The notes beneath the pieces are model-generated. The model was not told where the DNA came from and did not search any database. It saw nothing but the letters and a program-made list of their open reading frames with translations. From NCBI GenBank assembly GCA_003482885.1, contig DMXN01000032.1, positions 13,129-77,128 on the forward strand: a stretch of 64,000 nt of DNA. Reading direction: 5' to 3'. The translations under genes were made by a program, and so were the position numbers. This DNA comes from Candidatus Moraniibacteriota bacterium. Lineage in GTDB: Bacteria; Patescibacteriota; Minisyncoccia; Moranbacterales; UBA2206. This document shows, one piece after another, positions 54,058-60,123 of this stretch. Numbering within the stretch: the first letter of the stretch is position 1; each line of letters opens with the position of its first letter.

Positions 54058-54771
54058 TCAAGAAAAATCGCCCGAACTTTTTTTCAATCCTTCGCGATAA
54101 AGTTTCAGTTGAAATATCAAATCTTTTTTCAAGTTATTTTTCACCCAATCTTTTTGTTTGGCATCCAGCAATTCTCCCAAACCTTGCAAGATATATTTGT
54201 TGTCAAATTTTTCCAAAATCTCTATAGATTTTTCGATATAATCAAGAATATTTTTTTTTGTTTTTTTAACAATCGTTTCTTTATTAATATCCCAATGTTT
54301 TGAGAAAAAGCAATGAACATCAAAAAAATCACGCGAGGCTGTTTTTTTTCTGTCCGCCAGCGCCGCCAATTTGCAAGCAAACATATCGCCTGGTTCCATA
54401 ACTTTCATTGAAATGCCGAGATAATCTTTTACTAAAAACTTTCCGGCGCTTCCTCTTCTCGAAATTTCTATTTTAATATTTCTTTCATTTTTTCCGTACG
54501 AAAGCAGAAAAAAAATAGTATAACGCTTTATATGTTTTTCCATGATTTCCCCATGCTTTGAAAGAATTTTTTCCAACTCCACAAAAACTACTTTTTCTTT
54601 TTCCTCGCTTAATAAATCAAAATCCAGATCAACGCTATAGCGAGGTAAATCATAAAAAAGATACGCCGCCGTACCACCCTTAAATCCCAAATAAGGCGCG
54701 ACAGAAAGCGTTTCATAAATATCTTTTAAAATTTCAACCATTGCGGTTTTGTGCAATTCCCAATTAAGCAT
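54058..54771 (-). CDS. AbiEii-family nucleotidyltransferase toxin, pair #4
   Basis: LGFKGGTAAYLFYDLPRYSVDLDFD. Confidence 0.75.
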   Translation of the reverse strand: MLNWELHKTAMVEILKDIYETLSVAPYLGFKGGTAAYLFYDLPRYSVDLDFDLLSEEKEKVVFVELEKILSKHGEIMEKHIKRYTIFFLLSYGKNERNIKIEISRRGSAGKFLVKDYLGISMKVMEPGDMFACKLAALADRKKTASRDFFDVHCFFSKHWDINKETIVKKTKKNILDYIEKSIEILEKFDNKYILQGLGELLDAKQKDWVKNNLKKDLIFQLKLYREGLKKSSGDFS

Positions 54772-55552: not shown

Positions 55553-56227
55553 ATGGCAGGATTGATAGAAATATTAGATAGAGTTGCGACATTTTTTTTA
55601 GTTGCAGAAAAAATTCCCATCTTAGGGAAAATTCTGAAAACCACCACTGAAAAAGGTGGGGAAGTAATCGGGAAAAAAATGGAATCGGTTATCGGCAGTT
55701 TTTTAGATGCCGAGGCTGCAAAAAAAACTTTTGACGATGAAATTTCATTTGAAAAAGTAGTTGCAACGGGAACGCTAGCCTCTGCTGAAAGGCAGGTCTT
55801 GATGAGCTATGTCGGTCGCCTTCGAGGTACAACTCCTGATTTAGCTAGTGAGCTCACTCGATGGGTTCACAATACCTTGGTGGCTAATCGTCAACAAGTG
55901 AAACTGTCGACGGGTCAAAAAGAAAACCGTGAAGAAAGAACTTCTGTCGATGATTCCGAAGGAATTCAAATCGCAGAAAACTTACTTCTCGATATTATCA
56001 AAGCAACGGATGATTCTGCGAGAGAAGAAATTCTCAAGCAAAGAGACATCCGTATTAGAGAAAAAAAGACTCCGAAAGGAGTTGAGACAGCAAAAAAAGT
56101 TGGGTCGGCGGTCGCTTCTCAACAAAAAGCAAATTTTGACGACCACAAAAAAACTGCCACAAGCTTTGAAGCTGCCGGCAAAAAATACCTCGAAGAAGTA
56201 CGAGCCAAAAGGAGGGCGCAAAAATGA
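55553..56227 (+). CDS. Hypothetical soluble protein, first gene of the GC-rich island (ATG at 55553 preferred over the track start)
   Basis: AGGAGG lies 7 nt upstream of ATG(55553) MAGLIEILDRVATFF. About 48-50% GC, and the C-terminal half is Lys/Glu-rich. No recognisable motif. Confidence 0.5.
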   Translation: MAGLIEILDRVATFFLVAEKIPILGKILKTTTEKGGEVIGKKMESVIGSFLDAEAAKKTFDDEISFEKVVATGTLASAERQVLMSYVGRLRGTTPDLASELTRWVHNTLVANRQQVKLSTGQKENREERTSVDDSEGIQIAENLLLDIIKATDDSAREEILKQRDIRIREKKTPKGVETAKKVGSAVASQQKANFDDHKKTATSFEAAGKKYLEEVRAKRRAQK

Positions 56228-57285
56228 CAATTTTCATAATATTACCCCTAATAATACTTACTCTGGCGTGGATATTTAACGCCCCAGCTAGGCAGTACAT
56301 GAACGGCGGATTGGCTTATTGCTGGGGATGGTTTTTAGCTCATATCCCCACCGTCGGCGGAGTGTTGGCGGTGGTCGGCGTTGTTGTCGCGTTACCAATC
56401 ATTCTCGGCGCCGGTTGGATCGGCTTTTGGGCAGCCATCGGCAGCTGGGCGCTTGCGCCTACTGCCGGTATGACCATCGGAATCCTTTCGTTGGTTGGCA
56501 TTTTTGCCTTCCGGAAAACGATCGGATTCTTCCTAACGATAGCGTTCATCGCTATCGTAATCGGCTTTTGTTTCCCGCTTCTTAAAGAAGCAATAAACCG
56601 ATACAGCCAGTCCGGTCAGGATGAGCTGGCTAATGTCCTCGATAGTCAATCCGTCCAGATGCAATCGCAAGGCGTAATGCCAGCGGTTGTCATCGAAGAT
56701 GCCGTGCTGTATAACAGAGACGGCAAAGTCATAAATGATTCTGTCAAGAAAGGCGTGGAGTTGCGAACCATTAGCCTGAAAAAATACTCGCTCGGAAAAA
56801 ACCCCGAGACCTTCATCAATGTAATGCTCTCCAACGCAAAGGGTGAGTATTTTGATGGGGAATGCGGGTTAATCCCAGTCAGGAAATTGAAACTGGGAAC
56901 AACCGCGGCAGAAGAGTCCCGCAAAGTCGAAGAGGCTAAGCGGGCGAAAATCGAGAATACCGACTCCGACGCCGATAAGATTTCTCGACGGGAGTTGGAA
57001 AAGGAAACTGCCGCGCGGACAGCGGTGGCAACAACCGGTTGCCAGCCCGACCAGGATAAGGGCGTGTATTGCGCCCATATCCAGCCGGGTGGGTTTGACA
57101 CTCTCCAGCTTCCCGCTGGGGAGTATGCACTTGTGCCGGCAACGGCACAGGTTCGCTGGGATAAAAACCAGTATAAAGCCAGCGGCGGAACATTGTCGCT
57201 GGCTGTTCCTAGATTGGTTTTTTTCTCGTTTCCCGACAATGTAATGTCGGGAGATATCACAATCACAAAAAAACCTCCTTCCTGA
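56224..57285 (+). CDS. Hypothetical polytopic membrane protein (4-5 N-terminal TM segments plus a ~200-aa soluble C-terminal domain), GC-rich island
   Basis: ATGA overlap with the upstream gene, very hydrophobic N-terminal 130 aa, and about 52% GC. Confidence 0.55.
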   Translation: MTIFIILPLIILTLAWIFNAPARQYMNGGLAYCWGWFLAHIPTVGGVLAVVGVVVALPIILGAGWIGFWAAIGSWALAPTAGMTIGILSLVGIFAFRKTIGFFLTIAFIAIVIGFCFPLLKEAINRYSQSGQDELANVLDSQSVQMQSQGVMPAVVIEDAVLYNRDGKVINDSVKKGVELRTISLKKYSLGKNPETFINVMLSNAKGEYFDGECGLIPVRKLKLGTTAAEESRKVEEAKRAKIENTDSDADKISRRELEKETAARTAVATTGCQPDQDKGVYCAHIQPGGFDTLQLPAGEYALVPATAQVRWDKNQYKASGGTLSLAVPRLVFFSFPDNVMSGDITITKKPPS

Positions 57286-59111: not shown

Positions 59112-59480
59112 TTAAAATAAATAATCAGCGTTTAACATATAATCCACCGCGGTAACAACCACCACTCCGGAAAGCGCCACAATTACTCCATAAATCGAAG
59201 CCATCATTGCGCTTTTAGCAGTTTTCATTTTAGCGTCATCCCCCGCCGAAGTTAAATACATCAAACCGGAAATTATAAAACCAATCACGCCGGCGATTCC
59301 CACTAGCGTTAAAAGCCAATCAAGAATATTGGAAATAATACCATAGATGCCCTCAATAGGATCGGGCAGACCAAAACCCGACACATCAAGCAGATCCCAA
59401 CCGCCAATAGCGGTTTTTTTAAACCCGAACAAAAACACCAAGCTCAAAACCGCGATGGATAAAAAATTTTTTGATTTCAT
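59112..59480 (-). CDS. VirB2/TrbC-like pilin-family protein (paralogue 2)
   Basis: Signal peptide plus the module ILDWLLTLVGIAGVIGFIISGLMYLTSAGDDAKMKTAKSAMMASIYGVIVALSGVVVV. Confidence 0.55.
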   Translation of the reverse strand: MKSKNFLSIAVLSLVFLFGFKKTAIGGWDLLDVSGFGLPDPIEGIYGIISNILDWLLTLVGIAGVIGFIISGLMYLTSAGDDAKMKTAKSAMMASIYGVIVALSGVVVVTAVDYMLNADYLF

Positions 59481-59494
59481 TTTTCTTGTTTTTC

Positions 59495-59661
59495 TTTGTC
59501 ATTCCCGCGAAGGCGGGGATCTAGGTTCCACTAAACTATTTACTACAACAAATCAAATTATATTTTTTATTTTATACTACTTTGCACTAATTGTATTAAT
59601 TTGTTTTTTCTTTATATAAAACTTGTGGTGACTGGATCCCCGCCTTCGCGGGGATGACAAT
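59495..59661. mobile_element. MITE-like 167-bp element: GC-rich 27-bp terminal inverted repeats around an AT-rich core
   Basis: The left end is ttgtcattcccgcgaaggcggggatc. The right end is gatccccgccttcgcggggatgacaa, which matches 26 of 27 positions when reverse-complemented. Each end is itself a small GC hairpin (cccgc-gaag-gcggg). Confidence 0.4.
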
Positions 59662-59707
59662 AAGAAATTATAAAATTATTATCTATACTGTATCACAAAA
59701 AACAAAA

Positions 59708-59740
59708 TAAAAATAGTCCGCCATGGCGGACTATTTTTTA
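59708..59740 (-). terminator. Terminator of pilin paralogue 3
   Basis: tagtccgcc-at-ggcggacta is a perfect 9-bp stem with A and T runs on either side. Confidence 0.5.
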
Positions 59741-59766
59741 ACTTTTGCAAATATATATTTTCAAAA

Positions 59767-60123
59767 CTAGAATGTCGCGCCACCCAATAAGCCACTGGCC
59801 GCTCTAAGCGCCACCACGCCGGCAATCGCCACAAGCACTCCGATAATCGAAGCAACCATCGCGCTTTTAGCTTTCTTGATTTTATCTTCATCTCCGGCCG
59901 CCGTCAGATATAAAATTCCGGAAATCGCGAAACCGATTACTCCGGCAATCCCGATCGCGGTCAAAAGCCAGTTCATAATATTAGCGACAATATTCATAAC
60001 GGATTCTTCAGGAAGACCAGTTCCCCCTCCCGCGGTCGGATCAAAAGCTCCGAATACAATCGCCGGCGCTGCTAATGCCGCAACTGAAATCCCATAAGCC
60101 AATCCTCTAATTTTATTTTTCAT
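59767..60123 (-). CDS. VirB2/TrbC-like pilin-family protein (paralogue 3)
   Basis: Signal peptide plus IMNWLLTAIGIAGVIGFAISGILYLTAAGDEDKIKKAKSAMVASIIGVLVAIAGV. Confidence 0.55.
   Translation of the reverse strand: MKNKIRGLAYGISVAALAAPAIVFGAFDPTAGGGTGLPEESVMNIVANIMNWLLTAIGIAGVIGFAISGILYLTAAGDEDKIKKAKSAMVASIIGVLVAIAGVVALRAASGLLGGATF

Follow-up and report, generated by a model that had tools for sequence, protein, structure and literature searches.

Neisseria intergenic mosaic elements (NIMEs) are built from RS units of 50–150 bp flanked by inverted dRS3 repeats, and hairpins of the CGTC REP/dRS3 class were, to our knowledge, long held to have no dedicated enzyme. Within this class, the CGTC-1 REPs (dRS3 in Neisseria and RPE-6 in Rickettsia conorii) carry a CGTC, TGTC or CCTC tag, an 8-bp stem that starts with AT, a 4-nt loop and a CCA tail, and they occur mostly as head-to-head dimers with the tags outside and spacers of 20–100 bp (Di Nocera, De Gregorio and Rocco 2013, PMC3733652). 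The same study concluded that CGTC REPs are without a dedicated transposase and reported no tyrosine transposase gene flanked by CGTC repeats.

A link between the class and the Ssn single-strand nucleases dates only from 2025 (Chenal et al. 2025, PMC11893778). Members of the Ssn family (cd10448) are site-specific single-strand DNA nucleases that bind NTS or SRM (Ssn-related motif) hairpins and cut a few nucleotides upstream; GTC on the 5′ side of the palindrome and a C just 3′ of it are the critical determinants, and the enzymes are inactive on double-stranded DNA, on RNA and on the reverse strand (PMC11893778). In N. meningitidis, Ssn lowers transformation by NTS-bearing DNA. Chenal et al. 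liken the NTS–ssnA–NTS arrangement to an insertion sequence, possibly domesticated, and put forward mobility of the cassette as a hypothesis, Ssn being a hydrolytic nuclease without demonstrated strand-transfer or transposition activity (PMC11893778).

Here we describe a 167-bp element (59495–59661) in a 64-kb window, by which we mean the whole stretch of DNA analysed, from a Candidatus Moranbacteria MAG (Patescibacteria, candidate phyla radiation). The element is a new example of this recently described system and not a new kind of element: very probably a head-to-head SRM dimer whose spacer is what remains of an SRM–ssn–SRM cassette after loss of nearly the whole 97-codon ssn gene. Independent assemblies of groundwater metagenomes from JGI and ENA agree exactly over the locus, so the element is not an assembly artefact; three Logan contigs span part of the locus only.

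Two arms enclose an AT-rich spacer of 107–113 nt. The left arm, TGTCATTCCCGCGAAGGCGGGGATCTAG (59497–59524), is an SRM/CGTC-1 REP hairpin that reads forward on the plus strand with its TGTC tag outside; the right arm, TGTCATCCCCGCGAAGGCGGGGATCCAG (59632–59659), reads forward on the minus strand, likewise with its tag outside, and ends in a CCA tail. In both, an 8-bp stem carries a GAAG loop. The right arm, laid out as ATCCCCGC-GAAG-GCGGGGAT-CCA, forms a perfect stem (−9.7 kcal/mol as single-stranded DNA, with 0 of 200 shuffles folding as well), and the left arm, ATTCCCGC-GAAG-GCGGGGAT-CTA, has a variant tail and one T:G stem mismatch (−6.3 kcal/mol as DNA). These folds bear out the preliminary description of each arm as a small hairpin. 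Its inverted repeat also stands, with a full extent of 28–29 nt (TGTCATYCCCGCGAAGGCGGGGATCYAG), but the count of 26 matches in 27 positions does not: 59495–59521 and 59635–59661 agree at 25 of 27 positions, and the 26-nt string quoted there (ttgtcat...gatc) at 25 of 26, one fewer than claimed. Base composition had been overdrawn as well, with arms of roughly 70% GC in a genome of roughly 30%; the measured values are 59–63% for the arms, 22% for the spacer and 37% for the window. Folded as a whole, the element reaches z = −10.5 on one strand and −11.4 on the other.

Allowing up to three mismatches, the 24-mer of the arm occurs twice in the window and not once across 100 shuffles, which excludes a chance origin of the arms. 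Relaxing the search to 8 substitutions in 29 positions brings up no further copy in the window, and the window together with a 17-kb extension (about 81 kb contiguous) holds one arm pair only and no ssn homologue.

The arms belong to the class described above. The degenerate SRM search sequence defined by Chenal et al. (PMC11893778), HGTCWYN(0-2)YYVSBRHN(0-5)WNVSBRGN(0-2)RNCYNB, has exactly two matches in the window, which are the two arms, against a mean of 0.1 expected by chance from block shuffles of the window. Both arms keep the hairpin palindrome with GTC on its 5′ side and a C immediately 3′ of it, and both have the features of CGTC-1 REPs: a TGTC tag, a stem starting with AT, a 4-nt loop and a 3-nt tail close to CCA. 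Compared with the strict Neisseria NTS, CGTCATTCCCGCGMAVGCGGGAATCYRG, for which at most one mismatch was allowed, the left arm has two mismatches and the right arm three (the latter counted manually), two of the changes in the right arm forming a compensatory T>C/A>G stem pair. With two and three mismatches to the Neisseria consensus, the arms are SRMs and not NTSs in the strict sense.

The same hairpin is widespread. Exact matches to the 24-mer GTCATYCCCGCGAAGGCGGGGATC were found in 41 IMG/VR stretches of 44–71% GC, and the 29-mer of the right arm with its preceding T (59632–59660) is present exactly in at least 120 metagenome contigs of 32–69% GC; among the 118 metagenome copies listed for this 29-mer, at least 44 have an inverted partner 4–136 nt away with the TGTC ends outside. 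The arm motif is an autonomous hairpin, found in many phyla both alone and paired. We also observed that three Logan contigs of the locus (L044, L045 and L050), each drawn from as many as 13 samples, begin or terminate precisely at the 29-mer TTGTCATCCCCGCGAAGGCGGGGATCCAG; from these breaks in short-read contigs, the repeat must be a branch point in de Bruijn graphs. Among ssn-bearing contigs in the protein database, many are also short, at 0.5–2 kb.

Complete cassettes with the same ends are present in related genomes. A scan of GTDB representatives for the arm plus its junction picked out 14 loci, of which three belong to Moraniibacteriota or related MAGs. In two Moraniibacteriota MAGs (L189 and L179), a pair of inverted arms separated by 380 bp brackets an open reading frame of 97 aa whose product has a GIY-YIG domain (PF01541, E = 9e-16), and the same arm–ssn–arm architecture recurs at L212–L220. 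All the catalytic residues of the GIY-YIG domain are invariant in 15 diverse homologues; the Moraniibacteriota protein shares 61% identity with the SsnA orthologue of N. gonorrhoeae, and the nearest solved structures are those of uncharacterised UPF0213 proteins. We had considered the association of the repeat with a GIY-YIG gene as an undescribed one and rejected this, as it is already in Chenal et al. 2025 (PMC11893778).

By tblastn over 1.29 Mb, ssn lies within about 100 bp of the repeat in 16 of about 190 repeat-selected loci, typically with one arm 40–60 nt upstream of the gene and an inverted arm 1–50 nt downstream. When IMG/VR loci were selected by the protein instead, 18 of 19 had at least one tagged hairpin nearby and 12 of 19 had hairpins on both sides with outward tags. 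In annotated records, CGTC-class or CGTC-like tagged hairpins, different in each species, also flank the ssn homologues of Neisseria gonorrhoeae, Sinorhizobium meliloti, Azospirillum lipoferum and Novosphingobium aromaticivorans. The contexts of the Moraniibacteriota units vary: one is beside rsmA, another between gatB and miaA, and another between a DUF212 gene and a Mur ligase gene.

Three of these loci deserve separate mention. On plasmid AZO_p3 of Azospirillum lipoferum 4B (L223, NC_016623.1, 255506–255799), ssn sits in the sufB–sufC interval, and on either side of it is a head-to-head dimer of the exact 24-mer of the window (CGTCATCCCCGCGAAGGCGGGGATCCA), an intergenic insertion inside a conserved operon. 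At L212/L213 (JGI 3300037810; ENA ERZ27249449), miaA (IPPT) runs convergently to ssn and its annotated 3′ end is overlapped by the downstream arm of the unit; the repeat seems to supply the last codons of this host gene. Finally, the contig of P0037 (ERZ1426830, 13,875 bp; L218–L220), from a related Moraniibacteriota, has a full arm–ssn–arm unit in the pilin cluster that the window also carries, between an SBP gene and the first pilin gene; the right end of the unit is 15 nt before the ATG of that pilin, compared with 16 nt for the window element. This unit is a second, independent insertion at the same pilin locus and in the same orientation.

The spacer of the window element can be read against these units from both ends. 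On the side of the right arm, the homology is strong. The 46 nt inside this arm, aligned without gaps and anchored on the arm, are 65–80% identical to the 5′ untranslated region (UTR) and first codons of five Moraniibacteriota ssn units; against L189 there are 37 matches over the 46 nt, whereas the maximum in 5000 shuffles was 29 (0 of 5000 reach the observed value). A local alignment of this side to L189 gives 37 of 44 matches (z = 11.8), and L189 is also the best blastn-short match over about 1.4 Mb of fetched loci (29 of 32, E = 1e-4), with L212/L213 matching the same stretch at E of about 0.1. By MAFFT, the first 92 nt of the element, comprising the arm, the 5′ UTR and six codons, are collinear with four ssn units. 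From these alignments, the putative 5′ UTR remnant of the cassette occupies 59592–59631 on the minus strand. It is followed at 59574–59591 on the same strand by a putative remnant of ssn codons 1–6 (MAFFT and pairwise alignment), in which the start codon is lost and a stop codon has arisen in frame (ATT AGT GCA AAG TAG TAT, compared with ATG AGA ACT AAA GAT TAT in L189).

Towards the left arm, the homology is modest. The arm-anchored alignment places the last ssn codons, the stop codon and the 3′ UTR at 59525–59557 (minus strand), where TTT GAT TTG TTG TAG corresponds to CTC GAT TTT GTA TAA in the units. The 30 nt inside the arm are 63–73% identical to the 3′ ends of the five units, a level that 0 of 5000 shuffles reach, and the remnant holds a GTGG that pairs with CCAC at the opposite end of the spacer. 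Free local alignment of this side gives z = 1.4 and MAFFT an alternative placement, which leaves the deletion breakpoints uncertain; the global and MAFFT placements also differ for the middle of the spacer (59558–59573, minus strand), which is of uncertain origin and has the deletion junction or junctions in it or nearby. Measured from TGTCAT to ATGACA, a full unit is about 409 nt and the element 163 nt, so that about 246 nt are missing. We infer from the arms and the spacer together that the element is an ssn-less, MITE-like, non-autonomous derivative.

The element interrupts a cluster of four T4SS_pilin (PF18895) paralogues on the minus strand (60918–60157, 60123–59767, 59480–59112 and 59106–58609), separated by 33, 286 and 5 bp, as the preliminary description had measured them. 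It lies in the 286-bp gap, between paralogue 2 (59767–60123, 118 aa, a weak T4SS_pilin match), which is upstream, and paralogue 3 (59112–59480, 122 aa), whose ATG is 16 nt downstream. Read along the minus strand, the gap consists of a 29-nt motif, a terminator-like hairpin, an extended −10 element, the 167-bp element, a 16-nt A-rich leader and the paralogue-3 ATG. The hairpin after paralogue 2 (59709–59738) resembles a bidirectional intrinsic terminator and belongs to the older intergenic region, not to the element. The putative extended −10 of paralogue 3, TGTGATACAGT (59687–59697, minus strand), is about 27 nt upstream of the element, and a second match to a promoter consensus, GTGATA-18-TATAAT, is at 59696–59667.

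Syntenic pilin clusters in four relatives, with paralogue-3 proteins 88, 78, 65 and 65% identical to that of the window, supply the empty sites that the preliminary description had suggested looking for. The gap between paralogues 2 and 3 is 117, 115, 113 and 105 bp in these relatives, compared with 286 bp in the window, and this difference identifies the element as an insertion. In the alignment, the relatives are conserved up to ...TAATTT(C/T)TTA.. and then again from the A-rich leader before the ATG, and an extra block of about 165–173 nt, without counterpart in the four relatives, is present in the window alone. With relatives at graded distances, a single gain on the lineage of the window is more parsimonious than several precise losses, and the comparison suggests that the element arrived after the split from the close relatives. 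The −10 is kept in position as TGnTATAAT in all four relatives, which places the element within the 5′ UTR of paralogue 3, and at the terminator position the relatives carry a hairpin of different sequence. The element is flanked by TTTCTTAT| and |AAGAAAAAC. The target-site duplication envisaged in the preliminary description did not appear: no direct repeat was found at the window element or at five full ssn units. A second copy with the same spacer was found neither in about 220 fetched loci (about 1.4 Mb) nor, by the arm-plus-junction pattern scan, in GTDB representatives.

The 29-nt motif at the start of this gap is a 27–29-nt near-palindrome, TTTGAAAATATATATTTGCAAAGTTAA, at 59738–59766 on the minus strand, immediately downstream of the paralogue-2 stop codon. 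It is almost invariant in the window and in three relatives with pilins only 65–88% identical, and the adjoining terminator stem changes completely. Being more conserved than the coding sequence, TTTGAAAATATATATTTGCAAAGTTAA may be a protein-binding site.

Three other explanations for an element of this form can be weighed against an ssn-derived SRM dimer, and each of them fails on at least one of the features tested. The nearest is a REPIN: a REP-associated tyrosine transposase (RAYT, HUH/Y1 family), with its gene at another site in the genome, would have copied the REP doublet. By operational definition, a REPIN is a pair of inverted REPs with less than 130 bp between them, and the arms here are 107–113 nt apart; Bertels and Rainey assign a nearly identical Neisseria repeat, ATTCCCGCGCAGGCGGGAATC, to a Group 2 RAYT (bioRxiv 10.1101/2021.07.10.451892), and the lack of a target-site duplication is consistent with single-strand transposition by an HUH enzyme. 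Yet ssn, not a RAYT gene, is what adjoins the repeat in the 16 repeat-selected loci, and it is from an ssn cassette, not a RAYT gene, that the spacer comes. The report that CGTC repeats flank no tyrosine transposase gene (PMC3733652) weighs in the same direction, as does a tblastn search of the window and 177 repeat-selected and syntenic loci, which returned no RAYT match to its sole query, E. coli RayT of Group 3. We regard a REPIN as improbable on this evidence. The odds are poorer still for a classical MITE, meaning a deletion derivative of a DDE-type insertion sequence moved via its terminal inverted repeats, and we give this reading almost no credence. Size, terminal inverted repeats, AT-rich core and intergenic position would all suit it, but the arms are self-contained hairpins that also occur singly, the element is without the target-site duplication that goes with such an origin, and no transposase is among the 25 most frequent of the 100 Pfam families matched by the 53 open reading frames of the window, a ranking that a lone Y1_Tnp match could escape. 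Moreover, the gene-bearing units with the same ends encode the 97-aa GIY-YIG nuclease and nothing else. The preliminary view of a non-autonomous inserted element therefore survives, on the strength of the empty sites and the ssn-derived spacer; its terminal repeats are not those of a classical transposon but autonomous REP/SRM hairpins, and its parent is an Ssn unit.

The preliminary description had offered a structured small RNA or attenuator as its other possibility. A cis-regulatory RNA of this kind, whether attenuator, stabiliser or small RNA, under selection for the control of pilin paralogues 3 and 4, would account for the position of the element between a conserved promoter and a start codon and for the predicted hairpin in the pilin leader, which is very stable (−65 kcal/mol, z = −10.5). 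The same fold, however, leaves the start region unpaired, including the last 10 nt or so before the ATG; neither arm hairpin is followed by a U-tract, and the arms are found in thousands of unrelated contexts. Four relatives keep the promoter, terminator and start region and do not have the element. The sub-threshold matches to the Rfam family WsnRNA46 on both strands might be taken to favour regulation, but nothing in the whole window reaches an Rfam gathering score. Selection for a regulatory RNA thus appears very improbable, and the suggestion of a small RNA or attenuator is not upheld, although the element may incidentally influence mRNA stability or translation.

In E-value mode, the Rfam search at the locus returned sub-threshold microRNA-like hairpin models and WsnRNA46 only. 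Identity with WsnRNA46 (RF02625, Wolbachia sRNA 46) was rejected, since the scores are 33.2 and 29.4 bits against a gathering score of 65.3 and the stems and spacer are unrelated. The consensus of this family is itself an inverted pair, TGTCAT...GGATCCAG / CTGGAT...ATGACA, which explains sub-threshold matches on both strands (59482–59676 in the window), and WsnRNA46 appears to model a Wolbachia SRM head-to-head dimer.

For the SRM dimer with an ssn-derived spacer, two routes of formation can be proposed. A complete cassette may have inserted here and then lost ssn in place, which we hold to be somewhat the more probable course; or, with a smaller though considerable probability, the copy that moved here may already have been truncated, its Ssn provided in trans. 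One copy in about 81 kb and the lack of an ssn gene nearby lean towards decay in place, though not decisively. By either route the insertion landed in the 5′ UTR of pilin paralogue 3, 16 nt before the ATG and without a target-site duplication. Extrapolating from the biochemistry of Chenal et al. (PMC11893778), a cognate Ssn would bind either arm as a single-stranded DNA hairpin, and its cuts, one on each strand, would fall a few nucleotides 5′ of the arm, immediately beyond the element. Transcription probably carries the element into the pilin mRNA, where it would form a long 5′ hairpin that, according to the folding model, leaves the A-rich start region free, and any effect on pilin expression would be incidental.

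Some neighbouring features of the window are recorded here for completeness. Among its 53 open reading frames, Pfam finds AlwI-type and TdeIII-type restriction endonucleases and two N6_N4 DNA methylases. AlwI recognises GGATC, a sequence present in both arms; the co-occurrence of the AlwI-type gene and these sites is probably a coincidence. Compared with L042 and L044/L047, assemblies of the same locus differ at strain level at about 54058–54771 and 56224–57285 of the window. An AbiEii toxin gene is intact in some contigs (237 aa) and split in the JGI contig (95, 61 and 52 aa), and the gene next to it encodes 353 aa elsewhere and 328 aa in the JGI contig.

With this locus, the Ssn/SRM system reaches a Patescibacteria genome that has very few copies. 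The element has lost its interior and its gene, yet the spacer still reveals where it came from, and the empty-site comparison dates its insertion after the split from close relatives. A derivative of this kind together with empty sites is a prediction of the mobile-element hypothesis, and the locus lends modest support to the movement of SRM–ssn–SRM units. The broader proposition, that SRM–ssn–SRM cassettes are mobile in CPR bacteria and leave ssn-less, MITE-like derivatives, with this locus as the first record of a filled and an empty site, we advance tentatively, as a possibility with the balance still against it. If true, the two pilin-cluster insertions in two Moraniibacteriota lineages, 15–16 nt before start codons, would hint at targeting to, or retention at, surface-protein loci, where such elements might modulate recombination as proposed for the NTS clusters of Neisseria. 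For experiment, the two arms with their known flanks are a concrete substrate, and the Moraniibacteriota Ssn P0026 and its relatives are the candidate enzyme. For annotation, arm pairs of this kind break short-read assemblies and should not be taken as regulatory RNAs.

Among described systems, Ssn/NTS (PMC11893778) is the closest, as the Moraniibacteriota parent units share its NTS–ssnA–NTS architecture. The window element differs in holding only the decayed ends of ssn, with no gene between or near the arms, and in residing in a CPR genome with very few copies rather than in a repeat-rich symbiont; to a mobility that was proposed and not demonstrated in that work, it adds a comparison of filled and empty sites. 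With the CGTC-1 REPs (PMC3733652), the element has in common the head-to-head dimer, the outside tags and the complementary spacer ends. Unlike that high-copy family, it is represented by one dimer in the roughly 81 kb searched here; its spacer of 107–113 nt is at the long end of the usual 20–100 bp, and its host phylum is outside the five listed in that study. The REPIN–RAYT system (Bertels and Rainey 2011; bioRxiv 10.1101/2021.07.10.451892) likewise has an inverted REP doublet that folds into a single long hairpin, and its units are non-autonomous and believed to rely on one enzyme whose single-copy gene the same repeats flank, but the family associated with the repeats here is a GIY-YIG nuclease and not an HUH tyrosine transposase. 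To the NIMEs, the element is similar in its core of about 110 bp, its inverted dRS3-type repeats and its surface-protein gene neighbours; it differs in standing singly rather than in an array, and in having a core that can be traced to ssn.
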